This document shows positions 9,638-51,799 of a DNA stretch of 64,000 nt, in pieces. The position numbers and the translations under genes are program-made. Source of the stretch: Chiloscyllium plagiosum (taxonomy: Eukaryota); contig NC_057720.1 of the NCBI RefSeq assembly GCF_004010195.1, positions 78,794,132 to 78,858,131 on the forward strand, read 5' to 3'. The stretch's first letter is position 1; every line of letters begins with the position of its first letter. The notes under the pieces are model-generated. The model had not been told where the DNA came from and did no database searches. It was given only the letters and a program-made list of their open reading frames with translations.

Positions 9638-9639
9638 TC

Positions 9640-22863: not shown

Positions 22864-22869
22864 AATAAA
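22864..22869 (+). terminator. Candidate APOBEC4 polyadenylation signal
   Basis: First AATAAA after the stop codon. Others lie near 23920, 24038 and 24085. Confidence 0.35.
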
Positions 22870-25907: not shown

Positions 25908-26046
25908 AATGGGTGGCGCTGGAAAAGTACAGCAGGTCAGGCAGCATCCGAGGAGCAGGAGAGTCGACGTTTTGGGCATAAGCCCTTCATCGTATTCCTG
26001 ATGCTGCCTGACCTGCTGTGCTTTTACAGCGCTACCTTTTTCGACT
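25908..26046. mobile_element. Inverted Penelope pseudo-LTR pair
   Basis: AAAAGTACAGCAGGTCAGGCAGCATC ... GATGCTGCCTGACCTGCTGTGCTTTT. Confidence 0.75.
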
Positions 26047-26677: not shown

Positions 26678-28901
26678 AAATTGACTGTGGTATTATGTAA
26701 AAGGTAATGTTGACTACACTTTAACCAATGTACAGTAGTTCTTTGTAAAGCATTTTAAACTGCTCACGCCGTATGACTATGAATCTAATTAGTCGTATTT
26801 TGGATATCACTTTCAGAAAGGTTTTATTCCGATGAACACACAAGGATTAAGCATGCAGATACCTATTGCAAAAATCAGAGCATACACTGTTTTATTCAAT
26901 GTGGCACATCAGGCCTGGTGTTTCTGCACTAGTTTGGCTCTGTTGATGGTATGTTATGAGCAGCACAAAAATATAACAGAGCAAATGAATGCAGGAATTC
27001 AAGTGAAAAAAAAAGTTGCTGCCACCATCATTTTAACATTGGAATATCTGTGACTATTTTGTGCCGCTTTTGCCCTCTTCTGCACGGATACTAGGAAAAA
27101 CTAAAAAACCTCACTGAGCTGAAATAATTCTTGCACAGATCAATGTTCAAATGTTTTACCAACTACAACCAAATTGGCTGTGGTCTTGTGTAAAAAGTAA
27201 TGTTGACTACACTTTAACCAATGCAGTTCTTTGTGAAGCATTTTAAACTGCTCAAAACATGACAAGGCGTTACGTTGCGATTAAGCAACTGGATTAGAAT
27301 TCATGAGGCCTAGACAATAATTCAGTTTGAGGACTTGGTTTCAGCGACCATCACTGGTGTCCTCTGTTTATGTTACAAAGGAACACTCAGGGACAAATTT
27401 AGTGGCTTGACCTGTTGGGGCTAATTTTATTCCGTCGAACTGTTGATATGAATTTTTGCTGCCTCATTTCTTGTAGTGTGTAAATTTCTGCTCTGTAGAG
27501 TAATCCCTTGAGACATTAATTTCATTGGTAACAGAGAGGAAGGTGTTGAAGTTGATCATTGTAATAACAGTAGTGTTGTCCCTTTGACAAATGCTAAAAC
27601 CTGACACGTTTGTTGTGCATGAGTGACTTTGGACCCGTTAAATTTAAGACTGGCATACAACAAACACAGCCAACATTTAAACCTACAAGGAAATGACTGT
27701 TTCAGTACATTTGGCAGGTCTAACAGTCCAACATTTTTGATTTATTCCACTGTCTATAAGACTGGCTTGAGCAATGTAACTAGTTACTCAGAGAAATTAT
27801 TCAATCCCTAGATTTCAGTTTAGTTATGGGCATAATCTTGTGGAATAGCCATTCAGCTCTTGTTTAAGCAGTTTTTTAAAAATTGTAATCTTTATAGTTA
27901 TGCTGCTGTTCCAAGAACAAGTAAATGATCATTCCACCCAACTGGACCACAGAGAAGAGGATGGTGTGTTGGAGTATTGGAAAGAGCTGGATAATACAGC
28001 AGGGCTCAGGTCAAAGGATGTTGTTTGTGACTTATCACTATGGGCTATTTCAGTGCTGTGTAGGGGCTGGAAATCTAATTGTGGGTCTTAAATATTGTGG
28101 GAAAGATGGGCATGAAAATGTGGATTGTGTTTCCTTTCATAAAAGAAACCTTGAAATGTTGTCAATTTTCACTTAAATGGATCAGTTCCCTAAGAATAGC
28201 TGAGAAATGTTTCCACGAAGGATCAAAAGTATTTTCAATCCTACAACTGCAAATCTTTTATCTCAGAATTTCCTTTTGAATAAGAGGCCATTTTTTTTAA
28301 GGAGGGTTGTTCACCTGTGGAATGAACTTCCTGAGGAAGTGGTGGCTGCGGGTACAATTACAATATTTAAATGACACTTGGACAGATACAGGACTAGGAA
28401 AGGTTTGGAAGGATATGGGCCAGGAGGAGGCAAGTGGGACTAGTTCAGTTTGGGATTATGTTCAGCATGGTCCGGTTGGACCGAAGGGTCTGTTTCCACG
28501 CCATATGGCTCCATGACTCTCTAACTAGTTGTCCTTAGGATATCACTTTAAAAAAAAGTTTTATTCCAATGAACGCACAAGGATTACTCATGCAGTTACA
28601 AATTGCAAATCAGAGCATATGCTGTTTTATTCAATGTGGCACACCAGTCCTGGTGTTTCCACATTCATTTAGCCCTGTTGACAGTATATTATGAGCAGCA
28701 CAAAAATATAACAGAGCAAATGCATGCAGGAATTCAAGTGAAAAGAAAGTTGCTGCTACCATCATTTTAACATGGGAATTTTTGTGACTATTTTGTGCTG
28801 CTTTTGCCCTCTTCTGCATGGATACTAGGAGAAACTATAAAACCTCACTGAGCTGAAATAATATTTGCACAGATCAATGTTCAAATGTTTTACCAACCAC
28901 A
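26678..28901. repeat. Interrupted tandem duplication (~490-bp unit)
   Basis: 26678-26766 matches 27173-27254, and 26800-27166 matches 28535-28901. Confidence 0.85.
28290..28521 (+). mobile_element. CR1 3' end fragment
   Basis: AGGGTTGTT...TGGAATGAACTTCCTGAGGAAGTGG...CCATGACTCT. Confidence 0.8.
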
Positions 28902-29149
28902 AAGCAGCAGCTGGTGGCTCTTAGTTTTAATAGATTAAAAACATAAACGAAAGAGTGCTCTCGAGTTGCAATGGTAGTATCCCTAGCTCTGTGCCAATAG
29001 ACCTGGTTTCAATGCCCACCTGCTCCAAATATATGTGTAATACCATTGCTGAACAATTTGAGTAGAAAATATCTGAATCATGGATGAAAAAGGGAAATCA
29101 GGAAACAAACATTTTGGGTAAAAATGTAAATGAATATTGATGGAGGATA

Positions 29150-30230
29150 CAGAACTGGTGTGAAGGTGGAAGACAAAGGGTGGTGGTGGAGGGTTGCTTT
29201 TCAGACTGGACCTGTGACCAGTGGTGTGCCACAAGGGTTGGTGCTGAGTCCACTGCTTTTAATCCTTCATATAAAATGATTTGGATGTGAACATATGAGG
29301 TAAATTTGCATATGACACCAAAATTGGAGGTGTAGTGGACAGCGAAGAAAAGTACCTCAGAGTACAATGGGATCTTGATCAGTTGGGCCAATGGGCTGAG
29401 GAATGGCAGATGGAGTTTAATTTAGATAAATGTGAGGTGCTGCATTTTGGAAAAGCACATCAGAGCAGGACTTATACACTTAATGGTAAGGTCTTGAGGA
29501 GTGTTGCTGAACAAAGAGACCTTGTAGTACAGGTTCATAGTTCCTTGAAAGTAGAGTCACAGGTAGAAAGGATAGTGAAGAAAGCGTTTGGTATGCTTTC
29601 CTTTATTGGACAGAGCATTCAGTATAGGAGTTGGGAGGTCATGTTGCAGCTGTACTGGACATTGTTTCGGCCACTTTTGGAATATTGTGTTGAATTCTGG
29701 TCTCAATCCTATTGGAAAGATGTTGTGAAACTTGAAAGGGTTCAGTAAAGATTTACAAGGATGTTGCCAGGGTTGGAGGGTTTGAGCTACAGGGAGAGGC
29801 TGAACAGGCTGGGGCTGTTTTCCCTGCAGCATTGGAGGCTGAGGGGTGACCTTACAGAGATTCGTAAAATCATGAGAGGCACAGATAGGGTAAATAGACA
29901 AGGTGTTTTCCTCCCTGGGTGGGGGAGTTCAGAACTAGAGGGCATAGATTTAGGGTGAGATGGAAAATAATTAAAAGGGACCTAAAAGGCAACTTTTTCA
30001 TACAGAGGGTGGTGTGTGTATGGAATGTGCTGCCAGAGGAAATGGTGGAGGCTGGTGCAATTACCACATTTAAAAGGCATGTGGATGGGTATATGAATAG
30101 GAAGGGTTGAGAGGGATGTGGTTAAGTGCTGGCAAATGGGACTAGATTGGGTTAGGATATCTGGTCAGCATGGACGAGTTGGACCGAAGGATCTGTTTCC
30201 ATGCTGTACATCTCTATGACTCTATGACTA
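29150..30230 (+). mobile_element. CR1 LINE 3' part
   Basis: GVPQG, DTKIGG, WQMEFNLDKCEVLHFG, 3' UTR and (CTATGA) tail. Confidence 0.92.
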
Positions 30231-31029
30231 TATGTGGGCACTTGGCTGCAGATTTGACTATATATTTGGTCTTCTCTCCTGTTGTGAGCTTTCTGCTGAG
30301 ATCAGGATGTTTCAGTTTCCGAGGACACAGAATCCCACTTGCTACAGATTGGGTGTCTCTCCACACTACACTGGATCAGTCTTACAGAGCCCCAGCTTTT
30401 TACAGTGGAAAAGGGGGTTGCAGTTGATAAAATAAGCAGGCCTCACACCTCCTAGTGATACACTATGTTCACTGTGTATGATGTTAATGCAAGAGAACAT
30501 GGTTAGCTCGCGCCAATTCCTTGACAGCAGTAAGGAAACCTAACAGACAGAAGTGGATTTCCCACCATAAAAAATCACCAGACTGCAGACCGCAAATAAA
30601 TTGCCTCAAGTTGAACAATTTGCCTATCCACAAACTTCAACAGCCATTCTTTTATCTTATATAAACATATTATATTAAAAAGTGCATTTTTGCACAGCAT
30701 TTGCCCGTGTTAAGTATGAATGCCCATCCCTCAAAAGATATGTGCATTTGGCTAAAAAGAAGAAAATGTGTTTATTTGTATTATGTAACATTTAACTAAG
30801 ATATAGACAGCAAGTATAATGAAGTCCACAAAGGAATGAAGACTTCACTTGAAAGGGAATTTCATCACCATGGCAATTTAGGTCCAGGTTAGTCTTCTAT
30901 AAGAATTAGTCTACACATTGCACTTGTATGAAATTCTCACCACATCTTACCAGCATTTTAATTTTGTGTTACATATTTGAAAACCAAACTGGTTTCCAAA
31001 CACAAACAAAACCTGAATGCATTCTTTAA

Positions 31030-31381
31030 GTGCATGGATAGGATAAATAGACAAAGTCTCTTCCCTGGGGTCGGGGAGTCCAGAACTAGAGGGCATAGGT
31101 TTAGGTGAGAAGGGAAAGTTATAAAAGAGACCTAAGGGGAACTTTTTCACGCAGAGGGTGGTACGTGTATGGAATGAGCTGCCAGAGGATGTGGTGGAGG
31201 CTGGTACAATTGCAACGTTTAGCAGACATCTGGATGGGTATATGAATAGGAAAGGTTTGGAGGGGTATGAGCTGGATGCTGGCAGGTGGGACTAGATTGG
31301 GTTGGGATATCTGGTCTGCGTGGATGAGTCTGCGCGAAGGATCTGTTTCTGTGCTGTACATCTCTATGACTCTATGACTCT
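31030..31381 (+). mobile_element. CR1 3' end
   Basis: GESRTRGHRF..., 3' UTR and CTCTATGACTCTATGACTC tail. Confidence 0.9.
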
Positions 31382-31619
31382 ACTGCTGGTTATTCCCCCA
31401 ATACTTTACCCCTCCCCCACAAATTAAACCAACAGAAAGTGCTGGGTTTGGCAGCATCTGTGAATGGAGTGAATGTTTCGAGTCCTGCATGGCTCTTTTT
31501 CAGAACTCTTCACTCATACTAGTCACACTTCCAACTGCATTATTTGTTTTCATTACCATCCTAAATTATTCATGTCACACTATTGTTTTCTGGTAAAATT
31601 GTGAATGGTGACATTGTGC

Positions 31620-33650
31620 TAATGGTACCAGCAAATGAAATTCTGAAGTTCAGAATTGAAGCTCTGGAAGCATTATTTCAAATACCATCACAATGCTAAA
31701 GGAATTTCAATGTAATTAACTAATAAATTTGGACTAGAATTTTAGACGCTAATATTCATAATGGAACAAGCAGGACAAAGAGTTGGACAAATGGAAAACC
31801 ATTTCATCCCCATATGGCCTTCAGGGGAGGGAATCTGACATCATTACTTACTGTGGCCTAAATATGGCTCCAGATCCACAGCAATGTTATGAATTCTTTA
31901 TTAACTACCTTCTGTAATGGCCGGTATGTCATTGTTATAAAAAGATAAAGAATAAAGTTGATGGACCATCCAAAATCAAATCAGGAAATGGAAATAACAA
32001 AAGTATATCTTGCTCAGTTGACCCTGCAATATCCTCCTAAATATCAACTGGGAATTGTGCCAAAATTGGCAGAGCTGTCCAACAAACAACTCAAGAAACT
32101 GCCTGGCTTAGTCATATCATAAATCATACCTGACAGCCAATGCTTCAGCCTCCTCCATCAACATCCCTGTCTCACTGGCGAGTAGACACAACAGAGCTGA
32201 GGAGGATCAAAGGTATACAGTCAGGAGGTTGTGAGAGTCCTGAGATTCCTCTACTTTGACTTTGAACAATCTGATGTTTCACGGCATCAGGTCAAACATG
32301 AGCATGGAAACCTCCTGCTGATTACCACCTTTCCTCCTCCTACCCTGTTTTCAACTGAGAAGTCAGTTTATCTCTATGTTGAATACCACATAGATGAAGC
32401 ATTCAGGGTTAAAGGTACTTTGGATGGGATCTTCAATGTCCCTCACCAAGTAGCTCAATAGTATAAAAGTTGGGGACTGATAAGGCCCAGTGGGCCATCA
32501 GCATATGTGGAACTGAATTCAACAACAGCCTGTAACCCCCATCCTGCAGCTTAAGTGAGGGGTACATTGGAGCATGCCAGAAGTTAATTTTGTGGTAGAG
32601 GTGCACTCACGGAGCTGGGAGAGATAGAGTTCCAGAATTTTGACAGAGTGAAAGGATGAAAATGTACTTCATAGACAGGGCAGTGGTATCTTGGAGGTGA
32701 ATAAGCAGACAGTGGTGTTCCCATGCACCTGCTACCCTTGTTATCATCACTACCTGTTCAGTTTGGCAGACCTACAGAACTCACATGGGAATGATCTACA
32801 GGTCCCTGAACAATATCCATGATGTAGGGGGACATATATGCAATAAAATATTCAACGCTTGTGATAAAGGGACAGGAATAAGCATGGATAATTTTAACCT
32901 ACACATAAACTGAAAACATTGGATTGGTAACAGGAGTTACTTACCTTGATGGCGAACAAATAAAATATTTTCAAAATAGTTGTTCAGAACAGCACATTCT
33001 GGAACTAACCAGAGAATAGTTTGTATTAGAATTGGCATTGTATAACATGACCGGAGTAATAAATTGTGATTAATAATTACTTGACTCTTGTTAAGATGGA
33101 GATAAGTAGGTTCCTGTTGGTCAATGGAATCAATGGCTATTAGGGGTAGAGGGTGAGGGCAAGTTACAAGTCAGAACACAAATAGTTCAGCCATGATCTT
33201 ATTGAATGTTGGAGTAGATTCAAAGAGGTGAATATCTTCTTTTTGTTCCTAATTTGTAATTGTATATTTCTTAAAGATTCACTGAACTTTGGAGCTACCA
33301 GTTGAGAGAAATTGGTAGAATGTTTCCTTTTCCATATTTGACCTGATACCATGAGACTGATTCGAGGTCAGAGTTAGTGCTGCGAACTATTGGACCATTC
33401 TTTTGTGACTGCACATCCACGTGCCACCACCTCTGGTGGAACTGTCCTGCTGGTGGGGAGGAACATAAGCAGGGTAGTGAGGTGGGAGTCTGGAATCTGT
33501 AAGATATGATTCAGTGAACATGACTATATCGGACTATTGCTCCTCTAATGTTGATGTAAATCCAGGATAACAGGAAGTCAGAACTGAAAGGACGGAATTG
33601 TCATGATGTGCCATTGTGGTATCTGATGCCCAGATACATACCAGATGGTC
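31620..33650. mobile_element. Old LINE endonuclease-region and SINE remnants
   Basis: Degraded endonuclease-like segments (QVKHEHGNLLLITT..PP..., GIFNVPH) and CR1-like pieces. Boundaries unclear. Confidence 0.4.
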
Positions 33651-36600
33651 AATCCAATTTTACTCCTATTAACATTTATGTGGTTCTCAGTTATTTCAGT
33701 GGGCAGTTAAGAGCTAACCATATTGTCGTGATTCTGGACCACTGCAGATTCAACAAAATGAGAGGATAGTATATTTCTTACTTTGAAGGACATTTGTGCA
33801 ATAGATAGCTTTTCTCCTAGGTTTTCACAGCAATTGAGTAGCTTGTAGCCACTATTATTGGGACCATTTTTTATTCTGAATATACTAATTAATTGAATTT
33901 AAATACCCTTAGCTGCTGTTCTGGGATTTGAATTTGTGTCACTCAAACAATAGGCTCATATGTCTAGATTACTCATCTACAGTAGTTACATTGGCACGTA
34001 TCTGTGCCCTTGTGCAACAAGGTTGGTAGAATGCCATCTATTTACCTAGCATGATTGACAATGAAACACATTGAAAATTATTGAGGAGACAATGGCAGGC
34101 AAACACATGACACTTCACAACTGAAATGCTGAATCAAAAATAATGAATTTTTCTGGAGTTTGATCAAAGCAGCAGTGATGGTTGCTCCCTAAGCAAGCAT
34201 TTAGATTAAAAATTGTTTTGGGAGTGTCTTTGACAATTTGGTCACTTGTCATGAATAATTCACATCACAAAGGCTCCCATGTCTCCTCAAATAGACAGTT
34301 CAGATGACTATAGTAATTTAATAAGAGTCTGCTATTACAGCAACAAAGACAAATTGAACTACACTTAATTGTTAAATCAGAAAGCTTCATGATAAGTGTA
34401 ACAAAATACCTGATTTGATTTAACTTTAGCATCCAATTTACACATGTTTTGCATTGTCTATAAAGGAAAATTAAGATTGAAAATTAGGTATGTAACTTAG
34501 TCAATGAGGTAATATATTCAAGTGAAATATCTAAATCCTATATCATTTTTCTTTTGTGTAACACGGGTCTGCAGGGAACAGCCATTAATATCAATCAAAT
34601 TGCCTGGATTACCTTGAACAGAAGACGTTAGTAAGTCAAGCAGGTGGTCTATGGAATGTCAAATGAGTGTGTTTCCTGACCAATATCCTGCTCCCTTATG
34701 CAGAGACACCAAGGGAAATTCTAATATTTTATTGTCATTTGTGTAGACAGCAGTTAACTCAGCAGATATAAGCCTTTTTAGTCTGAACAACTTCTCACCC
34801 TCACCTTACTTTACAACTCTGAAACATTTGGGACATGTTGCTGCATTAAAAAGTTGTTAATACATTTTGCAGGTCACTGGATAACCCTTAAACGGCAGTG
34901 GAAACCCTCTAACATTGCCTTTTAAATTGAGAAAGGTTCCAGTATTTGTAAAATTGTCATTTGTAACATGCGGACATTACAATGTTTTTCACAGCCAATG
35001 ATGTGCATTTTGATGTGTAGTCATAATATTTAAGAAAGTGGCAGCCAGCTTATGCCCATCTATTCCCAGAAGAGAATCTGGCTGAAAGGCAATATCAGTG
35101 CAGTCTATCAAATGGCTGGACACTAACTACAGGCAACAGACTTCCTTGGAGGAACATTGTGGGAAGAAGTCATTTACAACAATCAAATGGATTCATGCCC
35201 CACTGACTCAATGGCCAGATTCTTTATAGTTGGGCCAGTACTGTAATAATGAGAATTTGAGTCTCCTAGTAAGCATGCAATAAGTGCATGACTTGATGTA
35301 CTTTATTTGTGTACTTTATACTAAAGACATCTCCCTGCTTTCAATGAATGCACCAATCTACAATCTACTCATTGTTGGTTTGATGCGGTCACTAGCATGG
35401 CAACTTGCCCGCAATTCATACACTCAAATGATTCACTAGTACCACCACCCAGTGCTGTAAAAGCAAGTTGGCATTCCTCAGTGTGTTTGTGTCTGGTGGA
35501 TTGCTAAAAACAAAATTCACTTAAACTCTCAGTCTGGTAATAATTTTTTACCCGAATAATCAGGAGTTAAGTATTCCTGACTTCTGAAATAGTAATTCTT
35601 TAATTGCATTTCTTTATTTTGTTTTATTCAATTGTATGTGCAGACCTTTGTGTTTTTCTCATCTTTATGAACCAATATTGACCAGATTTAAAATATCATC
35701 ACTTTTAAACCTTTAATGCATTTGGAAAATCTGCCATACATTGTGCCAGTAGAATGTTCTGAGACATTTTTCTGATGCATGATTTTAAGAGGCAAGTAAA
35801 GAATTATTTCTCTGTTGGCATCAGAGAAACTGAACTCCCAAAATTATGTGTACTAATGTATTTAATTCATACTGTACCTAAGATTAAATAAATGCCCATG
35901 ATCAATTTAAATCTCAATGAGTGTCCAGATATGGCACAATTGCATGTCACAGAAAACCACAAACTATGTGCTTGTATTTTAATTGGTTTCAGCAGAAATT
36001 AGGCCATGTTCTTTCTGGCATCCTATCCTAAGTCAGCCTCCAAACATAATGTTATCATGGTGACTTAAATCCATAATTATTGCCTTTAACTTTTGTCTGT
36101 GCTGTATTGCTTTACCACCTCAATCCTGTCCCCAGTTTTCACTCACTTCCTTGTTCAGTAAAAGCACTAATGCTCTACTTGTGTATATATATATCACATT
36201 TTATTCTAATAAGACAAATAACATAAAAATAAATTGATATTTTACAACCATATTGACAAGCTCAGTAAGAAAAATTATGTAATGTCCATGCTTAAACAAT
36301 AAAAAAGTAAAACTATTAAAGTAAAACTATTACATTACTAAAATAAAGGCAACCAGCTGTGAATACATTGCTTTGAATGCATGAAATCTCTGTTCCTTCC
36401 TCTCTCACACTATTTATGGTTCTTTCCATCTGTTCTGCCATGGAAGAACTAGGCTGTTGAATCCCTGACTTGTCATACTCACTCCCTTAATTCCATCAAG
36501 TCAATTTGTGTCGTATAAATTTTTAGCTTTCCAGGTAACTTAACATAGTAGCCTTCCACCTTAACGATCCTAGGTTCTCAAAAGAGCTGTTCAGAAATCT

Positions 36601-39600
36601 AGTGCAGTGCTGTATATCTAAGGGTCACACAATGGACATTCTGGATGTCTTCCCTCCCTGAGCTTCATCATACTCTTCCCCTCATTCCTCTAGACTTCTT
36701 CCCAAGCCTTTCCTTCCCATGCATTGCATGGTGCAACAGAGGACAGGGAAGGATAGGCTATGGAAGGATCTGCCCTCCAGTATTTCTAAGTTGTTACAAT
36801 GCCAGAAAAATGAAAAACACATAATCAAACGCAATAAATCATAGTCGCTCAATGCACAGCATGTGTGGTGATAAATCAAAACTCATGTGCTTTCCACCAT
36901 ATTAAACAGTTGGAATAAGTAAGCAATCAACAGGGATGGAGGAAATATTTCAAGGTGATATTAATATTTCAAGTAAAGCAGAATGGAGGTGCTAAAGTTA
37001 ATTACACAGTGGAGAAAATCAATTAAAGTGTACACATTCAGGTTTCAAAAATTAAGTAGAGTTCCACATGAACTTGTTTGGTTTTCCTTTAGTAGTCATA
37101 ATACTACAACATGCTGGCAGTGAACAGAAGGATTGCCTGACAGATGACAGGTTCTTTTCTTGTTTTGAGTTTAGGAATTGGTTTGCAAATCTGATTCAAA
37201 TTTGGATTTTGTTGACTGAAGGTTGTCAGGCATTGCATGTGGGAGAGCAGCAAAATTTGGCTAGTGAATGAAACACCATCTAAGATCCACTGTTAAACCT
37301 GATTAAAACATTGCACTTTGTGGTTACAAGCTCGTTCCCAGTCATGGTGATTATTAAAAATTTACTAAAGACCTGACAGTTATCTTCACCACATCCACTA
37401 TGTTACATCAAGGGACCCAATTCCTTTTGATGATTATATAGCCGTTTTGCATTCATCGTGGATAAAAATTAGATCATTATTCTATATCAGTCTTCAATCA
37501 AAAATAAAACAATACATACACCAGTTATTTAATTTTTTCTAAATGGGAACATTTTAATGGATCTCTACCCTAGTACATGGTATACATTTGTTACTCAGTA
37601 TGTCTTATATTTTGCTTGCTAAAATCTTAGCACACAAACTATTTTTTGAATTCATACGAATAAGGCCACTTGAGACTGTTCCATTGAATCATATCATGAC
37701 CCATTTCTATCTCAACTCCAATTACTCATCTTTTATTCATTTACCATTAATACACTGACACAACTAAAATGGCAGTTTTGAAATTTTGAATGATAGTCTT
37801 TAGAAGTTGCAGTTGACAAAAGTTTTGCTAAAATATCTATCATGGGATTTCACCTAACTGACATAGCTCGAATTTGAAACATTCAGCTACAGCTATTTCC
37901 TGATCTAAAGTTATTATCAAAAAAAATCCAGCGTGTCTATGCCAAAATGACCAACATTTCTCAAATATAAATTCGCCAATGTCGCCAACTGGTGGTTGTT
38001 TAACCTGAGGGTCAGGCGAGGGCAGAGATTGAGAAGGACAATCGTCCGTGGTAAACACAAATGTTTGCTTACACTTTCAATATCAACTTGCTCTTGCTGA
38101 GAAAAATGGGAAGTGTAACAGGCCAACTGAGCAGACCAGAACCTCAGACACTTGAGGTCCCTCAAAATGAAACTCAACAAACCTTTCATTATCAGTCCTC
38201 ATTGTGCTCAGCATTATTACAACTAAGAAATGTCTGACTCTGGGGAGGGGCAAAGTTCTGCCACTGCTGCAAGTCCAACAACTACTCCTTTTCACAGATG
38301 TCATGCAACACTAGTATAATTGTCTAGTAGGATATGGCAGAGATGAGTGTCAGCAAATAGATCAAAAGAGCAGGCAAAAGTTATATGTGAATTAAAATAT
38401 AATTGCCTGAGTGTGTGACCAAATGAGGGATATGAGGAACAAGATATCAATGGATTGGAGTTTGTGGTATGTGAAGAACTAAGGATAGCTCTTACCTTTC
38501 CAAATCAAAATAGAAGTATAGAAATCAGAGTGACTCAGTGAGATCATTCAGATGATCGAAAGTGAGTTCTACAAGTAAAATGAAAACATCATGACAGTCA
38601 AAACAAAATTCAACATGAAAAGAGAAAACGCCATTAAACTGGAATACTGGACCAATAATTATCAACTGCTAACTTCAAAGTAATTACATGTATCCATGAT
38701 TATATTGGTCTTTCAATATCATTTTGCTCTTCCTTAAAAATGTCTAAAACTTTAAAATGCTAACTAAGCAAACTATGACTTCAGCATTGAGATATTTCAG
38801 GTCATTCAAAATTAAAATTCACAAAGCTTTCACTTTGACATATTTGTGAATAAATATATAAATCTTGCACATCCTGGAAGCACTATCCCAACTTCTAAAG
38901 AGGGTAACCTACAGGTGAAGTAGGGAGACAACGTACATTCAGGATAGGTTAGTCAAGAGCAGTAATCCAGGGGCGGGGTTGCACTGACATTTGGCCATCA
39001 GAGGCAGTCAGGTTCTTGGAATCCATACCTCTGCAGGACCGTTTACTGGGTCATGGTCAGTCAAGTGGATGACTGAAACCAGCCTGGGAGTTGGGAGAAC
39101 ACATCTGGGAAACTGTAGAGACAACAGTTGGATGCCCGGTCATTCATTGTTCACCCTGTCTGTATAGGTTGTTCAAAGGGGTGGCCATATCAGTCCTCAT
39201 TGTTACAACTGAGAAATGTCTGACACTGTGGACGCACTGCTGCCAGTGATGCAAGGCCGACAACTATTCCTTTTCACAGGTGTCTTGCAACATTGATGTT
39301 ATTATCCAGTCGGATATGGCAGAGATGAGTGTCAGAAAATGGCTCAAAGTAGCATGCAAAGTAATATGTAAATTAAAATCATTTTAAAATGAATATGTTA
39401 AAGAATGTCTGGACACGGTGAACAAGATACCACTGGATTGGAGTTTGATGTGCGTGAAGGATAGTTCTTACCTTTCCGAATCAAAATATAAGTGCGACGC
39501 TGCGAGATCACTCATTGAAATGTAGTGAGTTCGAAAAGAAAAGTGAAAACATCATGAGTCAAAACGAAATTCAACACAAAAATACAAAGACTGGCATCAA

Positions 39601-40504
39601 ACTTAAATATCAGACCAAAACATATGATATGCTGACATCAGTGCAATTACATCTGTCTATTATTCATTTGCCCCTTCAATATCTACCTGCCATTCCTTAG
39701 AAAAATTAAAAGTTTAATTTGTCAACTGACCAGCCTAGGGCATTATCCTTCAGATACTTCAGGTCAAAATGAAACTCAATAAAGCTTCACTCTAATAGAC
39801 CACCTTCCACATCTGGAAGGATTTCCTTAAGGCTTTCTATATCCAGTTGTTCTAGACTGTGCTGTAAAGTAGGAAAGGCACTGAATAGTGCGCACACAGT
39901 AATGTTTCATGAATAACCAGGTATTAATAACTAGTTCCTCTATTTAAGATTGAGGGACAAATATTCGACAATGTGCAAGGGAGAGTTCCACTGATTTTCT
40001 TCAAATTCTTGAGATAATGGGATCTTATGGTCATCCGAGATTAACATTTTTGAATGATGATATTCCCTCCAGCAAAGACAAGAACAAACATTTCCATCCA
40101 GTCAAAAAGCTGACCCAATAATGTGGCCAATTTAATTTTAGTACTGACAAGAGTTGAAGCCATTGTCAACTGCAACATACACACATGAATTCAGTAGGGT
40201 TACCCCCATATTTGCGTTCACATTTCCAGTTTTCCTTTCTGTGAAATGTGGACTAAAATCTAATTTCTTTGTACAAATGATTTCAAATTACATCATGGTA
40301 TCGAATGATATCATGAAGGTATTCCTCCTTTCTCTCTGCTTCAACTAGTGTTATTTCTAATCACACTAATAAGAGGGAGGGGGAAGAAAACAATACGCAC
40401 CTGAAAATGCAGAACTAAACCTCTCGAGTGTTCACTCCACGTTGTCTCAACCTGAAATGGGGAGGCACAGCAGTTATTGTTCATTGTTTATTGTGTTTTC
40501 AAAT

Positions 40505-40533
40505 GTTTCCATGGTTACTGATTTATGACATCA
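40505..40533. promoter_or_regulatory. RFX X-box plus CRE-like composite (repeated in each M module)
   Basis: GTTTCCATGGTTAC-N7-TGACATCA. Also at 43570, 44463 and 50412 (X-box only), with the variant ATTTCCGTGGTTAC at 42254 and 46216. Confidence 0.45.
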
Positions 40534-43500
40534 TAGTCCAAACATTGTGAAGTCACTGGACTCATTATTTTCAAAAGAAAACCCTCTAAAAAGGAACACA
40601 AAGTCTGCTTGAGCAGTTATCTGTTGTTTTCTACTTCATCGCTGTTTACATGGTCATGTGGAGAGGGAGGGTCTGTTGGTAAATTTGGCCATCATGTCAT
40701 GGATACAATACCCCCACACCTCCACCTTGCCAGTCAGGTTGAAATCACCAGGATGCCCTGCCACACATGACTAAAAACATCAAGTTATTGGCATTGTGGT
40801 TGGGCTTGCTGGTTAGCTCGCAAGAGGATAGGTGGTCACATCAGTCCTCAAAGTCCCTCAAAAACCAGATAAAACTTTACTGTTGAGGTCAGCTCATACA
40901 TTGACCTTTGATGCCTCAAAAGACATCGTTAACACTGTTTGATTTGTACGTGAGGATAAAAGTGGGCGACTGGCTCTGGGGATGGTGTTCACAATCTTTG
41001 TCAATCATCCTGTGATGTCTGATCTGTGTGGAAGTTTCTTAAAAGCCCATAAAACATCACCACATAGCCCATACTGTATTTCTGGCTTGGTCTCTTGTGC
41101 TCACTCATTAGGTAAAATTAAGCAATACTCTATTTGTGGGATCAGAAATATTGGCTGACTACTAATGTGAGTACAGAATGCCTTTGCTGCATGGGGGCAT
41201 TGGCTTATCCATAAAGTATACAAGCAGAAACACGATTTCGCAGATTAAAACATGGCGTCACCTTGTTCCAGTTCAACATGATCTACAGGTGTTTTTTTAT
41301 CTATGACAAAATAGTGAGCCAACAATGGGGATAGGTAATCAACTTTCTGCCACAAGTTGTCTTCTAATATGAGGTGCAGTCAAATTTGTAATACAAGTGA
41401 GGAGATAATTTGAGTCAAACCCCAGTTAAACCCAAAAGGTGGAATACTGCAGTCAAATTTTAATATTAGATCAATAAATATCAAACATTTCTTTTTCTTC
41501 TGCCACTATTCATCTTACCTACTCAATGTCCTCTAAACCATTAATGCTTATCCACGCATATTTTCGTAATCAATAACTCCAATCTCTCCACCCAAACTCA
41601 ATCCAATTTCCTCTATGTAGCAGTGCTCCATTGCTCCCATGTGATTCTGAAAATGTGTCTGACACTAATCTCTTAAAATTAGTCTAGTTTAAACACAGTA
41701 ATGGCACAGCAGAGTGGTGCTATGGTGAATGCACTGTGCCTCGAAGGATTTAAAGTTTAACTGTCCCTGTCCCTGGATTGTTTTGCTGGGGACAATGTCA
41801 ATAGAACTTTGCTTTCAGTTTCCTTTTCTTTCAAACAGTAGACACATAAAAAGTGGCTAATTTAATTTTTATTGTGGCAAGGATGAGACCATTGCCAACT
41901 GTAACATTCACTCATGAATTCAATAGAGTTATCCCCATATTTGCATTCATGTTTCCAAATTTCCTTTCTCTGAAACATGAGTCAAAATCCAATTTCGTTA
42001 CAAATTCTGCCCAATAGAAATGATTTCAAATTACATCAAAACATTTCTCACAACCAAGAGTAATACCACAAAGGTATCCTTTCCCTTTGTTTCAACTAGT
42101 GTTAGTTCTAATTAGACTAACGAGGGAGAGGGAAAAAAAATCAATACACACCTGAAAATGCAGAATTAAAACTCTGGCAGTGTTCACTTCACGTTGTCTC
42201 AATATAAAATGGGGACAGATAGCAGTTATTGTTTATGTTTTTTGTTGTCAAACATTTCCGTGGTTACTGATTTATGACATCATAGTCAAACCATCATGAA
42301 GTCACCGAACCCACCCTTTTCAAAAGAAAACTTTCCATGAGGGAACACAAAGACTGCTTCGGCAGTTATCTATTGTTTTCCACTTCATGACTTTTTACAT
42401 GGTTGTCATGTGGTGTGGGTCTGTTGGTAAAATTGGGCACCATGCCCTGGGTACAGTTCCCCATCTCCACCAACACCCTCTCCCTGCAATCTTGAAAGTA
42501 CCAGGAGGCACACCCACATCTAAATAAAAACTTGATGAATTGGTTTTGAGGTTGGGCTGGCTGGTCAGCTGTCAAGTGGATGGGTGGCCTCATCAGTCCT
42601 CAAACTCCTTTAAAAACAGATAAATCTACAACCCTCTACCATTTAACTCAGCACAGACACTGACCTTTGGAGTCTCAAAAGACTCCAACAACACTGGTTT
42701 ATATGCTGAGAACAAAAGTAGACAACTGACTCTGGGGTTGGTGTTCACAATCTTTGTCATTCATTCTATGGTGTCTGATCTGTGTGGAGGTAATTGTAAT
42801 GTAATTGGTTGCGAAAAGGAGATCTGGGACGAATCTCTTTTCATTGGTGATAATATAAGACAACTTCTTTCTCTTTTCTTGCAGTTTTTCACTGAACCAT
42901 TTAGTATAGACTGTGTGATAATCTTATCTTTGTGCCAATCCTTTGTGATTTGAAATAGTAATTAAAATGTCACAAGAAAGGAAAGCATACCAACTCAGCG
43001 TGCATCAGAACTAATCCTTCAGAAACCTCAGCAGGCCGCACCAAGTGGAACACAAGGAAACGTTGACTTAAATTGCACCTTTCCCAACTGAGGAGACTGC
43101 TCAAAAAACCTCATACTAAAGAATCTTTAGCAGCTGCATTATAAGAAATATAAAAAGTGGCCAATTTAATTTCAATTTTATTATAAATTCTACCTAGTAC
43201 AAATGATTTCAAATTACATCAAAACATTTCTCACAACTGAGAGTAATTCCACATAAGTATCCTTTCTCTCTGCTTCAAGTAGTGTTATTTCTAATCAGGC
43301 TATTGAGGGAGAGGGAAAATAAACAATACGCACCTGAAAACGCAGAACTAAACCTCTCGAGTGTTCACTCCACGTTGTCTCAACCTGAAATGGGGAGGCA
43401 GAGCAGTTATTGTTCATTGTTTATTGTGTTTTCATAAGAGGGAGGGGGAAGAAAACAATACGCACCTGAAAATACAGAACTAAACCTCTCGAGTGTTCAC

Positions 43501-46500
43501 TCCACGTTGTCTCAACCTGAAATGGGGAGGCAGAGCAGTTATTGTTCATTGTTTATTGTGTTTTCAAATGTTTCCATGGTTACTGATTTATGACATCATA
43601 GTAAAAACATTGTGAAGTCACTGGATTCATTATTTTCAAAAGAAAACCTTCTAAAAAGGAACACAAAGTCTGCTTGAGCAGTTATCTGTTGTTTTCTACT
43701 TCATCGCCGTTTACATGGTCATGTTGAGAGGGAGGGTCGATGTTGATAAATTTGGCCATCATGTCATGGATAACAGTACCCCCCACCTTCACCTTGCCAG
43801 TCAGGTTGAAATCATCAGGATGCCCTGCCACATGTGACTAAAACATCAAGTTATTGGTATTGTGGTTGGGCTGGCTGGTTAGCTCTCAAAGGGATGGGTT
43901 GGTCACATCAGTCCCCAAAGTCCCTTAAAAACCAGATAAATCTTCAATGCCTCGAAGGATTTAAAGTTTAACTGTCCCTGTCCCTGGATTGTTTTGCTGG
44001 GGACAATGTCAACAGAACTTTGCTTTCAGTTTCCTTTTCTTTCAAACAGTAGACACATAAAAAGCGGCCAATTTAATTTTTATTTTGGCAAGGATGGGAG
44101 CCATTGCCAACTGTAACATTCACACATGAATTCAATAGAGTTATCCCCATATTCACATTCATGTTTCCAATTTTCCTTTCTGTGAAACATGGATTAAAAT
44201 CCAAGTTTGTTCTAAATTCTGCCCAGGACAAATGATTTCAAATTACATCAAAACATTTCTCACAACCGAGAGTAATTTCACAAAAGCATCCTTTCTCTCT
44301 GCTTCAACTAGTGTTATTTCTAATCAAAATAATGAGGGAGAGGGGAATAAAAAACAATACGCACCTGAAAATGCAGAACTAAAACTCTACAGTGTTCACT
44401 CCACGTTGTCTCAACCTGAAATGGGGACAACACAGCAGTTATTTTTTATTGTGTTTTCAAATGTTTCCATGGTTACTGATTTATGACATCACAGTCAAAA
44501 CATTGTGAAGTCACTGGACTCATTATTTTCAAAAACGAACACAAAGTCTGCTTGAGCAGTTACCTGTTGTTTTCTACTCCATCTCCGTTTACATAGTCAT
44601 GTGGAGAGGGAGGGTCTGTTGGTAAAATTGGCCATCATGTCATGGATACAGTACCCCCACCCTGCCTTTGCCAGTTGGGTGAAGGCACCAGGATTCCCTG
44701 CCACACGTGACTAAAATATCAAATCATTGGTATTGTATTGTGGTTGGGCTGGCTGGTTAGCTCTCAAGAGGATGGATGGTCACATCAGTCCTCAAAGTCC
44801 ATCAAAAACCAGATAAATCTTTACTGTTGAGGTGAGCTCACACATTGACCTTTGATGCCTCAAAAGACACCATTAACACTGTTTGATTTGTACATGAGAA
44901 TAAAAGTGGGTGACTAGCTCTGGGTATAGTGCTCACAATCTTTGTCAATCATCCTGTGATGTCTGATCTGTGTGAATGTTTCTTAAAAGCCCACAAAACA
45001 TTACAACATAGCCCATACTGTATTTCTGGCTTGGTCTCTTGTGCTCACTCATTAGGTAAAATTAAGCAAAACTCCATTTGTGGGATCAGAAATATTGGCT
45101 GACTACTAATGTGAGTACAGAATGCCTTTGCTGCATGGGGGCATTGGCTTATCCATAAAGTATACATGCAGAAACACATTTCGCAGATTAAAACATGGCA
45201 CCATCTTGTTCCAGTTCAACATGATCTACAGGTGTTTTTTTTATCTATGACAAAACAGTGAGGCAACAATGGGGATAGACAATCAACAAAATAGTGAGCC
45301 AACAAATGGGGATAGGTAATCAACTTTCTGCCACAAGTTGTCTTCTAATATAAGGTGCAGTCAAATTTGTAATACAAGTGAGGAGATAATTTGAGTCAAA
45401 CCCCAGTTAAACCCAAAAGGTGGAATACTGCAGTCAAATTTTAATACTAGATCAATAAATATCAAACATTTCTTTCTCTTCTGCCACTATTCATCTGCCT
45501 ACTCAATGTCCACTAAACCATTATTGCTTATCCATGCATATTTTCATAATCAATAACTCCAATCTCTCCACCCAAACTCAGTCCAATTTCCTCTATGTAG
45601 CAGTGCTCCATTGCTCCCATGTGATTCTGAAAAGGATGTCTGACACTAATCTCTTAAAATTAGTTTAGTTTAAACACAGTAATGCCACAGCAGAGTGGTG
45701 CAATGGTGAATGCACTGTGCCTCGAATGATTGAACATTTAGCTGTCCCTAACACAGAAATGTTTTGCTGGAGTCAATATCAATGGAAATTTATTTTCAAA
45801 CAGTAGACACATAAAAAGTGGCCAATTTAATTTTTATTGTGGCAAGGATGGGAGCCATTGCCAACTGTAACATTCACACATGAATTCAATAGAGTTATCC
45901 CCATTTTTGCATTCCTGTTTCCAATTTTCCTTTCTGTGAAACATGAATTAAAATCCAATTTCGGTACAAATTCTGCCCAATAGAAATGATTTCAAATCAC
46001 ATCAAAACATTTCTCAGAACTGAAAGTAATACCACAATAGTAACATTTCCCTCTGTTTCAACCAGTGTTAATTTTAATCAGACTAACGAGGGAGAGGGAA
46101 ACAAAATACCCACCTGAAAATGCAGAACTAAAACTCTGGCAGTGTTCACTTCACGTTGTCTCAACATGAAATGTGGACACATAGCAGTTATTGTTTATGT
46201 TTTTTGTTGACAAACATTTCCGTGGTTACTGATTTATGACATCATAGTCAAACCATCATGAAGTCACCGAACCCATCCTTTTCAAAAGAAAACTTTCCAT
46301 GAGGGAACACAAAGACTGCTTCGGCAGTTATCTATTGTTTTCCACTTCATGACTTTTTACATGGTTGTCATGTGGTGTGGGTCTGTTGGTAAAATTGGGC
46401 ACCATGTCTTGGGTACAGTTCCCCATCTCCACCAACACCCTCCCTGCAATCTTGAAAGTACCAGGAGGCACACCCACATCTGAATAAAAACTTGATGAAT

Positions 46501-46652
46501 TGGTTTTGAGGTTGGGCTGGCTGGTCAGCTGTCAAGTGGATGGGTGGCCACATCAGTCCTCAAACTCCTTTAAAAACAGATAAATCTACAACCCTCTACC
46601 ATTTAACTCAGCACAGACACTGACCTTTGGAGTCTCAAAAGACTCCACCAAC

Positions 46653-47202
46653 TGTGAGAGGTAATTTCGGTTTAAACTTTAAGATGTGCCTGGACCACAG
46701 ACTGATCTATAATAAAAGACAAAACTTTTGTTTCTTTTCTAACAACCATTTTATATACTCAAAAGTAGAATAGTTTAAATTGTGCAGAATGCTGACAATT
46801 TGTGAGCGATAGTAAAAACAAGCAGGCTCTTGATTGATGAAGCCATTCACACAGCAGGGAAGGATAAGTCCTTGACTGATAAGACTGCTAGCACAGACAG
46901 AGAAGAATAAGTCTTTGACTGATAAGACTACAGGGTGAGAAAAACAACAACTTTAGAGACTCTGAAGACATTTCTTGCAGACTTTGTGATAAAAATAATG
47001 ATGTTTTTAAGAATGTGAACCTCATGGCTTGTTGGAGCCAAGGAGAGGAGGGACATGTGCTGTATATAATGGGAGACTTTGTAAGCCTCAGCGCACCTTT
47101 TCTTTAAGGGTGCCCGACTCTGCAGACTTGACTTGTTAATAAAACTTTGTTTTCCTGAATTTGTCTAGAGCGATTATTGAGAAGCGATTTTCGTTTCTAA
47201 CA
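46653..47202 (+). mobile_element. Solo LTR (550 bp)
   Basis: TG...CA termini, 5-bp TSD CCAAC (46648-46652, 47203-47207), TATA-like ~47063 and AATAAA ~47138. The empty site is visible in the paralogous copy at ~42690. Confidence 0.9.
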
Positions 47203-47644
47203 CCAACACTGGTTTATATGCTGAGAACAAAAGTAGACAACTGACTCTGGGGTTGGTGTTCACAATCTTTGTCATTCATTCTATAGTGTCTGATCTGTGT
47301 GGAGGTAATTGTAATGTAATTGGTTGTGAAAAGGAGATCTGGGACGAAGCTCTTTTCATTGGTGATAATATAAGACAACTTCTTTCTCTTTCCTTGCAGT
47401 TTTTCACTGAACCATTTAGTATAGACTGTGTGATAATCCTATCTTTGTGCCTTTCCTTTGTGATTTGAAATAGTAATTAAAATGTCACAAGAAAGGAAAG
47501 CATACCAAATCAGTGTGCAATAGAACTAATCCTTCAGAAACCTCAGTAGGCCACACCAAGTGGAACACAAGGAAACGTTGACTTAAATTGCACCTTTCGC
47601 AACTGAGGAGACTGCTCAAAGAACCTCTTTCTAAAGAATCTTTA

Positions 47645-47995
47645 GCAGCTGCATTATAAGAAATATGGCTGACCATTTGCACACAGCAAACTTCAACAAA
47701 CTGCTGAATGATAATGACCAGATATTGTTCACTGTTATCATGAATTTTTTTTGGACTTGCATGTTTTAGCTAGGAGCGAGGCAGACATCCACCATTCCTC
47801 TTTACAGAAGGCCACAACATCTAAGTAGAGTAGGCAAACCAGGAGCTCAGTTTGGCATCCTCTGTGACAGCTGACAGCTCTGACAGTGCAATACTGCTCA
47901 ATACTGGACAATATTTGCCAGCCATTCTCAGTATCATTACAACTGATAAATGTCTGACTCTCAGGTGAGACTGTTGCCATTGGTGCAAACTTGAC
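47645..47995 (-). mobile_element. Deu-domain (SacSINE1-like) SINE
   Basis: TTTGCACACAGCAA...ATGATAATGACCAGAT and CTCTGACAGTGCAATACT...TCTGACTCTCAGG blocks. Confidence 0.6.
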
Positions 47996-48089
47996 AGTAA
48001 CTACTTTTCACTGCTGGAATGTAACAATGCTGCTACCACCTCATAGATTATATCAGATGTATATGTGACCAAATAGAATGAAGAATCAT

Positions 48090-48541
48090 TCTTCATGGCG
48101 ACAGAATCAACACGGACATCTACTACAAACCGACCGACACCCACAGCTACCTGGACTACACCTCCTCCCATCCTGCCCCCTGTAAAACCGCCATCCCATT
48201 CTCCCAATTCCTTCGACTCCGCCGCATCTGCTCCCAGGAGGACCAGTTCCAAAAACGCACAACCCAGATGGCCTCCTTCCTCAAGGACCGCAATTTCCCC
48301 CCACCTATCACCCTCACCTTGACCTCTTTCCACCTATCACATTTCCGACGCCCCTCCCACAAGTCCCTCCTCCCTACCTTTTATCTTAGCCTGCTGGACA
48401 AACTTTCCTCATTCCTGAAGAAGGGCTTATGCCCGAAACATCGATTCTCCTGTTCCCTGGAGGCTGCCTGACCTGCTGCGCTTTTCCAGCAACACATTTC
48501 CAGCTCTGATCTCCAGCATCTGCAGACCTCACTTTCTCCCC
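48090..48541 (+). mobile_element. Penelope-like element: RT C-terminal fragment and pseudo-LTR
   Basis: DIYYKPTDTHSYLDYTSSHPAPCKTAIPFSQFLRLRRICS, then CTGAAGAAGGGCTTATGCCCGAAAC. Confidence 0.88.
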
Positions 48542-48889
48542 AAATGGAATGAAGGTCCTGGCAAAATCTCTCTGTGAGTTAAAGAATAAATGGGTGATTG
48601 GATGTAGAGATTTGGGGAACAAGTTATCAACTGATTGGAGTTTGCTCTGTGGAAAGAAACTGAGGATACGTATATCTTTCTGCCTCAAAACTGCACTACA
48701 GACATTGAGTTGTTTCTTCAAGATGGCTATGACAATATACCCAAAAAACCTAAAAGATAAATGAAAATAGCATTCATGTCAAACTTAAACACAAAAAAAG
48801 AAAGACTGCAGTGTAATTACATCCTTCCATTATCTATTTGCCCCTTCAATATCTCCTTGCCCTTTCTTGGAAAACCAGATATTCTAAAT

Positions 48890-49712
48890 TAATCTAGTCC
48901 CATTTGCCAGCACTTGGCCCATATCCCTCTAAACCCTTCCTATTCATATACCCATCCAGATACATTTTAAATGTAATTTTACCAGCTCCACAACTTCCTT
49001 TGGCAGCCCATTCCATACATACACTACACACAGTGTGAAAAGGTTGTCCCTTAGGTCTCTTTTATATCTTTCCCCTCTCACCCTAAACCTATACCCTCTA
49101 GTTCTGGACTCCCCGACCCCAGGGAAAAGACTTTGTCTATTTACCCTATCCGTGCCCCTCATGATTTTATAAACCTTTATAAGGTCACCCCTCAGCCTCA
49201 GAAGCTCCAGGGAAAACAACCCCAGCCTATTCAACCTCTCCCTATAGCTCAAATCCTCCAACCCTGGCAAATCTTTGTAAATCTTTTCTGAACCCTTTCA
49301 AATTTCACAACATGCTTCCTGTAAGAGGGAAACCAGAATTGCACACAATATTCCAAAAGTGGCCCAACCATCATCCTGTACAGCCACCACATGACCGCCC
49401 CAACATCTATACTCAATGTTCTGACCAAAGAAGGAAAGCATACAAAACGCCTTCTTCACCATCCTATCTATCTGTGAATCCAGTTTCTAGGAACTATGAA
49501 CTCGCACTCCAAGGTCTCTTCGTTCAGTAACACTCCCCAGGACCTTACCATTAAGTGTCTTAAGTCCTCCCCTGATTTGCCTTACCAAAATTAAAATCCA
49601 TTTGCCACTCTTCGGCCCATTGGCCCGTCTGATCAAAATCCTGTTTGTACTCTGAGGTTACCTTCTTCGCTCTCTGTCCCTCTAATTTTGGTGCCATCTG
49701 CAAACTTACTAA
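48890..49712 (-). mobile_element. CR1 LINE 3' part
   Basis: FADGTKI, LPGLEDLSYRERLNRLGLFSL...LRGDLIKVYKIM. Confidence 0.9.
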
Positions 49713-51799
49713 CTTTCAGCTTCCTTTTAGTTCTGTGGAAAGAAACTGAGGATGCGTATACCTTTCTGCCTCAAAACTGCACTACAGACATTGAGTTTTT
49801 TCTTCAAGATGGCTATGACAATATACCCAAAAAACCTAAAAGATAAATGAAAATAGCATTCATGTCAAACTTAAACACAAAAAAAGAAAGACTGCAGTGT
49901 AATTACATCCTTCCATTATTTATTTGCCCCTTCAATATCTCCTTGCCCTTTCTTGGAAAACCAGATATTCTAAATTAATCTAGTCCCATTTGCCAGCACT
50001 TGGCCCATATCCCTCTAAACCCTTCCTATTCATATACCCATCCAGATACATTTTAAATGTAATTTTACTGGGGCAAGAGTTGGCATCATTGCCAAGTGCT
50101 GTATACAGACATCAATTCAATAAGGTTATCCCCATATTTCCAATTCTCCTGCCTCTTGAAATGTGGACTAAAATCCCATTTCTTTACAAATTCTACAAAC
50201 TGATGTGAAATTATCTCAAAACTCTTCTCACAACCGAGGGTGTTACCACAAAGGTATAGCTCCTTTCTCTCTGCTTCAATTGGTGTTAGTTCTACTTAAA
50301 ACTCTTGAAAAAAACACTTGAAAATGCAGAACTAAAAGTTTACTTCACGTTGTATCAATATGAAATGGGACACAGCAGCTATCCCTTCTGGTTGTCAATA
50401 TTGTCAAAACAGTTTCCATGGTTACTGATTCATACGGTCATAGACCATTATGAGATTATTGGACTTTATTGTTGTTAAATGTAAACCTTGAGAGACTGGA
50501 CACAAAGTTTGCTCAAGCAGTTACCTGTTGCGTTCCACTTCATCACTGTTTACATGGTCGTCATGTGGGGAGGGTCTATTGGTAACATGGACGCAGATTT
50601 GCACTTTCCCCAACACCATTCCTTTCAATCTTGCCAATGAGAATGAAGGTGCCTGGAGGTCTGTCCATACGTGATCAAAATGCCCATTAATTGTTTTTGT
50701 GGTTGGGCAGGCTGGTCAGCTATCACCCCTTCTGTCCATTAGAACCCCTGCCATCTCGCCGCCACCAATTTTGTATTTCCCCACCCATTCTGAATCCTGT
50801 CCAACCTCATCTCCCCTCACTCTTCCCTTGCTGGGTTCTGCCAGCCTGAGGCCAGGGCGACCTTGGACTTACCCACAGCTGTCCTGCTTCCATCATGGAA
50901 TATCTTCTTCTGGATTGACTGCAGCACCAGGCATGTCTACCTTTCCTGGTAGCACTGCCGGGACCAGGTATTGGCCAGCTATTAGACTGACTGGCACATG
51001 TAGAAGACTAGTTTTTCTCCCTAATGGTGCAAAAGAGTGCCTTATGTCCTTGTAGATATTCAGCTGTGGAGGGCAAGCTGCCCAAAGATAGGTACAACTG
51101 ACCCCATCCCTAAAAATCTAGTCCCATGTTTTACTAGATATGATATACCATACTCTTAATATTTTTGACACAATTCCAAATGCCAGATTAAGTGGGTGAG
51201 TGGAACCAAAACCTATTAACATAGTACATTTAAATTAGAATATCGAATGAGTTTGTGAGCTCATGTTATCCTTTGTTTCCAAACAATTGTATTTACTAAT
51301 TTGTCATTTGGAAAAGAAACTCTGTTGAGATGTATCTTTTTGTAGTGTGTGCATGTGTCTATCAGATGAATATAGTTTTAATTCTATATCATATCTTTAC
51401 TGTTAATCAATGTTTGCTACTTGCCTTAAAACAAAAATCAAAAAGGACTATGACAAAAAGAAATCTGATAATACACAGAAATTACTGGAGATACTTAACA
51501 GATCTGGCAGCATCGCTGGAGCAAAAGGAGAGTTAACGTTTCAAGTCCAGTGGCCCTTCTTCAGAGCTTTAAACATGTCTGTTCCCAATAAATGAATTCC
51601 TTTGACTTCATTAAGGAAGCCTGATGAATATTTATTTTATGCTGGATAATATGATCATAGAAAAGCAATTGATCATCATGGTAATTGAATTAGCAAATTA
51701 ATATTATATTAGCAGTGTAACTGGTAGAATAGTGGGGCTTGATTATCAGTGCACTCCTCTAGTCACAGTCACAACAGTACTTAGTTATTATCTCCTGTA

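Follow-up and report, generated by a model that had tools for sequence, protein, structure and literature searches.

What role, if any, is played by an array of non-coding modules that lies 17-28 kb beyond the APOBEC4 stop in the shark Chiloscyllium plagiosum and points toward the gene? The array was noticed in a first-pass annotation of a 64,000-nucleotide stretch of DNA (RefSeq assembly GCF_004010195.1, contig NC_057720.1, forward-strand positions 78,794,132 to 78,858,131; hereafter “the window”, whose own coordinates are used throughout), which described six copies of a promoter-like unit, module M, each with MYB-type, cAMP response element (CRE)-like and RFX X-box sites followed by a minus-strand splice donor. 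We tentatively read M, with a probability of roughly 45%, as a tandemly duplicated promoter and first-exon cassette of a minus-strand long non-coding RNA (lncRNA), likely driven by RFX factors. M is duplicated, carries the motifs, has dispersed copies and shows no coding signal; the functional case that its sequence might make is thin and post hoc, and nothing shows selection on M copy number. The array also heads a dispersed segmental-duplication family, a new context that was absent from the first-pass annotation; no description of the locus was found in a literature search covering titles and abstract openings.

The module M array

Module M is a non-coding unit of 0.8-1 kb, present in six minus-strand copies downstream of APOBEC4 at 40.1-50.9 kb. 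A motif scan of the window placed the X-box-like 14-mers (minus strand) at starts 40518, 42267, 43583, 44476, 46229 and 50425, reading GTAACCATGGAAAC in four of the six copies and GTAACCACGGAAAT in M2 and M5. The CRE-like TGATGTCA stands 7 nt ahead of the X-box in every copy except M6, TAACTG lies upstream of the X-box in all six, and a second TAACTG lies downstream in five, M6 having TAGCTG, an exception that the first-pass annotation did not state. Its placing of the six copies, their motifs and donors was otherwise borne out, donor positions agreeing to within 1 nt (donor GT at 40400, 42151, 43333, 43465, 44364 and 46113; decayed at 50317).

M1 (40102..41097) carries its X-box at 40505-40518, the CRE-like site at 40526-40533, TAACTG at 40614-40619 and 40471-40476, donor CAG/GTGCGT at 40400 (the slash marks the splice junction) and a possible 51-nt AG..GT cassette at 40401-40451. 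M2 (41831..42788) has the variant X-box at 42254-42267 and donor CAG/GTGTGT at 42151; in M3 (43164..43947; X-box 43570-43583) a 132-bp tandem duplication at 43305-43566 gave rise to both donors, 43465 and 43333. M4 (44042..45041) has its X-box at 44463-44476 and donor CAG/GTGCGT at 44364, M5 (45796..46652) the variant X-box at 46216-46229 and donor CAG/GTGGGT at 46113. M6 (50056..50893), the oldest local copy, keeps an intact X-box at 50412-50425, its CRE and second TAACTG being altered and its donor decayed (CAA/GTGTTT at 50317). X-box and donor are both retained in M1, M3 and M4. An AG..GT cassette of exactly 51 nt occurs in M1, M3 (twice) and M4; because its acceptor AG is absent from M2, M5, M6 and all three dispersed copies (below), the acceptor is a late gain, the donor being old.

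Aligned identity is 95% for M1/M3 and for M2/M5, 89% for M4 against M1, and 69-72% for M6 against the others. In the copy tree the local units group as M1/M3/M4, M2/M5 and M6, three lineages and not six independent cases; the repetition of M is far above chance, yet it is plain duplication. Self-comparison showed that a ~3-kb block (40102-43151) has a duplicate at 44042-47666, M3 lying between the two. Upstream of M5 lies an insertion resembling a solo long terminal repeat (LTR) (46653..47202, strand not assigned; 550 bp, TG..CA ends, 5-bp target duplication); the matching site is empty in the M2 block, and the insertion postdates the M2/M5 duplication. Long and short interspersed element (LINE and SINE) insertions also lie inside the array, at 48-50 kb. 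The X-box run is one of four stretches of 18-20 nt that are identical between M1 and M6, so the M6 X-box, singled out by the first-pass annotation as perfect amid drifted flanks, is indeed intact but not unique.

Outside the locus, M was found as three single dispersed copies (on C4, C39 and C91442; 67-75% identity). A genome search with M gave at least 11 matches at four places, and the exact 22-nt M pattern at least 6, at those four places only, both counts being lower bounds; M is therefore not a genome-wide interspersed repeat, which the first-pass annotation had named as a refutation.

Two further blocks stand out over the nine M copies. The best conserved, absent from the first-pass annotation, is a 34-nt block past the donor (40326-40360 and equivalents; top 2% of windows), which on the plus strand resembles a pyrimidine tract plus AG. 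About 140 nt upstream of each X-box lies ACCATGTAAA(C), near-invariant over the nine, which in several copies contains GTAAACA, a motif we take to be forkhead-type.

Conservation of the donor and the X-box

Conservation was measured among paralogous M copies of one genome (six local and three dispersed), with parsimony changes counted over a 405-nt M core. By these sequence comparisons the donor is the most telling feature. It occupies one gap-free aligned position, as CAG/GTG(C, G or T)GT locally and CAA/GTAAGC on C39 and C91442; CAG/GTGCGT and CAA/GTAAGC differ at four positions and both score as strong (8.1-10.8 bits on an approximate donor matrix), the strength of CAA/GTAAGC being matched by only 0.9-2.2% of all four-change variants. 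A donor of at least 8 bits is present in seven of the nine copies, being lost in C4 and M6. Neutral simulation on the tree reached seven of nine with P = 0.017-0.039 from a CAA/GTAAGY ancestor and in 0/6000 simulations from a weak ancestor.

The X-box shows 2 changes in the six local copies, with 33/317 core windows equally conserved. Under neutral simulation at least four of the six held its consensus with P = 0.06-0.07, and its survival in M6 together with the M1 lineage had P = 0.04-0.05. The consensus pattern GTHNYYATRRNAAC matches the window 5 times where 0.44 would be expected (1/100 shuffles reached 5), four of the five being copies of one site. A second X-box, at 36051-36064, was rejected, not being retained in the five copies that span the site. 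Across 95 loci the background is about one match per 180 strand-kb (10 in 1.78 million strand-bases), so a single unit with an X-box is uncommon, yet many motifs could have been chosen. The first TAACTG showed 0 changes in the six local copies (26/358 windows as low) and 1 change over nine (14/307). Taken jointly, the five motifs showed 10 changes in the six copies against 19.4 expected (P = 0.03, post hoc).

A dispersed segment family headed by the array

The array stands at one end of a ~29-kb non-coding segment (22585..51315, strand not assigned) whose other end starts in APOBEC4's last codons. Partial copies of the segment occur at nine other places: C4, C37 (two), C8 (two), C27, C26, C39 and C91442, that on C4 being collinear with window positions 50893 to 23034. 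Identity to the window is 0.80-0.85 for the dispersed copies, and 0.75-0.88 among themselves; identity above 90% is seen only between local pairs, so the dispersed copies fall short of the >90% by which segmental duplication is defined in PMC9925758. APOBEC4's last ~190 coding bases and the following flank recur at ~81% identity, with stops, at L067:8764-9132 (C8), L030 and L031, the only APOBEC4 traces found outside the window. Because one C8 copy holds APOBEC4's last codons, the APOBEC4 locus is the likely source of the segment. In a tree of the segment body (C39 and C26 excluded) the home copy has the shortest branch, a result biased in that direction by alignments all made against the window. 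An inverted pair (75%) at 22949-23023 and 25119-25205 falls where the C37 and C8 copies end or are inverted.

A parent protein gene upstream of the dispersed copies was considered and rejected: from 117 candidate frames, ten were checked by Pfam, which gave only three 7tm_1 frames (L113:8207-9124, L115:2458-3444 and L110:3983-4987), 17-37 kb from the C39, C4 and C37 copies and with no remnant in the window. We take these frames to be GPR139-like. Long frames within 23-51 kb are repeat matches or unconserved, and the body gives no coding signal.

A second repeated unit, N, flanks and interrupts the M array (38.2-39.8 kb and 48.6-50.0 kb), with exon-like stretches of 73-74 nt on M's strand. N1 and N2 (38191..39791, minus strand) each have a strong AAG/GTAAGA donor, and in N2 a 73-nt AG..GT stretch (38496-38568) reads with stops in all three frames. 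Two N-like units at 48641..49960 (minus strand; 98.8% alike, with a LINE fragment between) each hold a 74-nt AG..AAG exon-like stretch, at 49762-49835 with a GT donor and at 48676-48749 with the donor lost. A coding role for the 51-, 73- and 74-nt stretches was rejected, since they are too short for searching and their frames are not kept across copies. On C37, inverted segment copies at 10.227-10.237 Mb (L035/L036) and 13.517-13.522 Mb (L048) carry tandem arrays of a ~1-kb N unit, without M. N-like pyrimidine tracts also repeat on C2 at 103.99-104.02 Mb (L102-L104) and in L109, without M or body sequence, each followed by what we presume to be a LINE fragment.

RNA reads over the array

The tissue of origin of RNA runs X1, X2, X3, X8 and X9 is not on record, and they say nothing for or against expression: no exon in M and no junction at any M donor was found in them, at almost no coverage (X9, 0 reads aligned). 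Over 35500-52500, reads of X1, X2, X3 and X8 were swamped by the LINE/SINE sequence at 48-50 kb. For X1-X3, the small shares are best put down to the LTR-like insert at 46653-47202, whose family is covered ~45-230 deep in X1-X3, and also by X8 reads, mostly as slightly different copies. A second alignment (X1, X3, X8 and X9 on 31430-46640, likeness 80) placed no contig piece on the M core among the pieces listed, a further 399 lying beyond these. X1 gave three near-exact scraps at depth 2-6 (35494-35747, 39686-39862 and 41517-41730) that could be DNA or pre-mRNA; X8 gave 37 aligned reads, 2 of them at least 99% alike, with about one read's depth in the M1 and M3 bins in the direction of a minus-strand RNA, which is too little to use. 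Datasets X4-X7, whose type is not on record, share 0.45-0.52 of sequence words.

Promoter cassette or plain duplication

If M is a promoter and first-exon cassette, the array would have grown by unequal crossing-over over several rounds (identities of 69% to 99%), and RFX factors would bind the X-box and drive M in testis or ciliated cells. Transcription would begin near the X-box, splicing would take the donor ~100 nt downstream and join it to N-type exons further on, and the minus-strand RNA would run toward APOBEC4's 3' end, with only some copies (M1, M3 and M4, with X-box plus donor) still working. The exon-like AG..GT stretches of the N units, which share M's strand, are consistent with this, and in mouse testis RFX2 sites are concentrated at start sites (PMC4498915). 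The minus-strand promoter role suggested by the first-pass annotation is accordingly kept as the best single reading, with weak support from donor and X-box, shorn of its CRE and second MYB site, which are no more conserved than their flanks.

A good deal weighs against this reading. The CRE shows 4 changes in the six local copies (240/347 windows as low), no conservation above background; the second TAACTG shows 1 (106/358), and the donor columns change at a flank-like rate (3 changes; 170/342). The X-box consensus is intact in four of six local copies and in none of the three dispersed. The motif tests are post hoc because the motifs were chosen for their presence in most copies, and the joint P of 0.03 becomes 0.07 with one copy per lineage, 0.21 over nine copies and 0.64 in the three dispersed. 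From a consensus ancestor (CAG/GTAAGT), seven strong donors of nine would arise neutrally with P = 0.18-0.20, and the background supplies a 10-bit donor every ~6 kb per strand and a YAACKG every ~1.3 kb (0.76 per kb). CpG observed/expected is 0.19-0.29, with no CpG island, and N donors have decayed in many C37 copies. The body has no conserved blocks (mean identity 0.79, sd 0.06, maximum 0.92 in 418 windows), and its substitutions show no strand bias of the sort that germline transcription may leave, with no shark positive control for comparison (A>G 278/9464 and T>C 278/9732; the A>G/T>C ratio is 1.03 both pooled and in the home copy). Since the genes under RFX2, CREM and A-MYB are largely distinct in mouse (PMC4498915), the co-occurrence of the three motifs adds less than the first-pass annotation implied.

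Close behind stands neutral duplication, a serious alternative that we nevertheless hold to be somewhat doubtful, in which a duplication-prone non-coding segment was tandemly copied and exported and the motifs are chance matches multiplied by copying. The uniform ~80% identity without peaks, the symmetric substitutions, the joint P of 0.21 over nine copies and the other M1/M6 runs that equal the X-box run in length all fit it, as do the amplification of a different unit, N, on C37, the recurrence of N-like pieces on C2, and the LINE, SINE and LTR-like insertions tolerated within the array. It accounts for all but two observations: a strong donor at one position in two diverged forms, and the survival in two long local lineages of an X-box whose like occurs once per ~180 strand-kb.

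An unlikely alternative makes the array a multiplied RFX/MYB enhancer of APOBEC4 or a neighbour, without a stable transcript of its own. In its favour, the home copies retain the X-box and the three away from APOBEC4 have lost it (2 against 9 changes; in those three, 223/228 windows change as little or less), the window holds no X-box consensus match ahead of the APOBEC4 frame, APOBEC4 is expressed in testis and cilia, and the home copy has the shortest body-tree branch, subject to the reference bias noted above. An enhancer would leave the donor unexplained, however, X-box loss in the dispersed copies is expected by drift on branches of 0.15-0.28, and the array is 17-28 kb from APOBEC4's 3' end.

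Slightly less probable still is a bolder extension, in which the segment would be a “core duplicon” of sharks. On this view a germline non-coding transcription unit driven by RFX/MYB arose at APOBEC4's 3' end and was exported to several chromosomes, its 5' cassettes multiplied independently (M at home, N on C37), and it yields pachytene-type PIWI-interacting RNAs (piRNAs) or RNA antisense to APOBEC4. If true, this would be a first candidate pachytene piRNA cluster family in a cartilaginous fish.

APOBEC4 and its neighbours

The APOBEC4 open frame (21618-22775, plus strand; 385 aa stop to stop) was confirmed by Pfam, as the first-pass annotation had it, and is the sole full-length match in the genome search. 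APOBEC4 is expressed in testis and cilia; in human its neighbours are ARPC5 and RGL1, and a long form of RGL1 runs antisense over it. In the shark, 156 candidate frames over ~280 kb were considered, nine being checked by Pfam and one of these also against solved structures. The Pfam families found were Tad1 (weak), peroxiredoxin and procollagen galactosyltransferase. With family labels from Pfam and PDB, and gene names that we presume from them, the order on C11 at 78.68-78.89 Mb (L092, L090, L087, L086, L025, L077) is TADA1 (minus), PRDX6 (plus), APOBEC4 (plus), the array and COLGALT (minus). Whatever the role of the array, APOBEC4 here lacks ARPC5 and RGL1 as neighbours, within the limits of best-candidate scoring and of N gaps in the flanks.

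COLGALT invites an improbable reading in which M and N would be non-coding exons internal to a transcript with its start further upstream, such as COLGALT read-through on the same strand: its last exon and stop lie ~34 kb from M6, upstream on the minus strand, and the 51-nt cassette is exact in M1, M3 (twice) and M4, but the absence of the acceptor AG from M2, M5, M6 and the three dispersed copies makes it a late gain on an old donor. That M supplies alternative 5' exons of RGL1, as the first-pass annotation had suggested from the human arrangement, is very improbable and was dropped, the locus being flanked by TADA1 and PRDX6 to one side and by COLGALT to the other, and no RasGEF exon having been found near the locus in searches that score best candidates only, over flanks containing N gaps (P16-Arc, ARPC5-type, on C11 at 61.7 Mb, 17 Mb off; RasGEF, 1/38 matches on C11, at 84.5 Mb, 5.7 Mb off; RasGEF_N, 0/9 on C11). 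We take the C11 RasGEF match to be RALGPS-like.

Elsewhere, a 33-bp minisatellite (48.5 copies) occupies window positions 59704-61322, and retroviral-type pol frames lie upstream of APOBEC4 (L027:3668-6041 and window 9309-10760); reverse transcriptase and RNase H were found in one L027 frame by Pfam, the window frames being judged by eye. Rfam on 20000-64000 gave three sub-threshold matches, all at 25.9-26.0 kb, and none in M or N.

Comparison with known systems

If M units are live promoters, the locus offers a defined place for testing A-MYB/RFX-driven germline non-coding loci in sharks, where A-MYB is highly expressed in the gonads of the elephant shark (PMC5635590), and for testing whether such promoters seed segmental duplications outside primates; if they are not, it is an ordinary old duplication family and a warning that tandem copies multiply chance motifs. 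As repeated promoter-plus-donor units in one orientation, the modules recall the variable first exons of protocadherin and UGT1A, although neither a coding variable exon nor any shared constant exon was identified in the shark array. A 14-bp inverted-repeat X-box ~100 nt before a donor fits the start-proximal RFX site of RFX2 target promoters in spermatids and ciliated cells, as portrayed in PMC4498915; unlike those promoters the shark unit is tandemly repeated, and its binding, start site and tissue are putative.

With the A-MYB-driven pachytene piRNA loci of mammals and birds (PMC5635590, PMC9925758) the segment shares a long, unconserved, non-coding intergenic unit with MYB-type sites, but the strongest shark motif is the X-box, the targets of RFX2 and of A-MYB hardly coincide in mouse (PMC4498915), and the putative A-MYB link comes from hexamer matches alone. 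Segmental duplications are over-represented at pachytene piRNA loci of human and mouse, tandem duplications at those of chicken, and only a subset of structural-variation hotspots produces piRNAs (PMC9925758).

Primate core duplicons (LCR16a/NPIP and LRRC37; PMC7419210, PMC6920530 and PMC3371713) differ from the shark segment in that here no protein-coding gene or selected frame was found and transcription is putative. The shark copies, ~76-88% alike, also predate by far the classic segmental duplications, which are >90% identical. Alike in both are a segment repeatedly copied to dispersed sites, flanks that form a mosaic, sub-units in tandem and, at one end, a candidate promoter.

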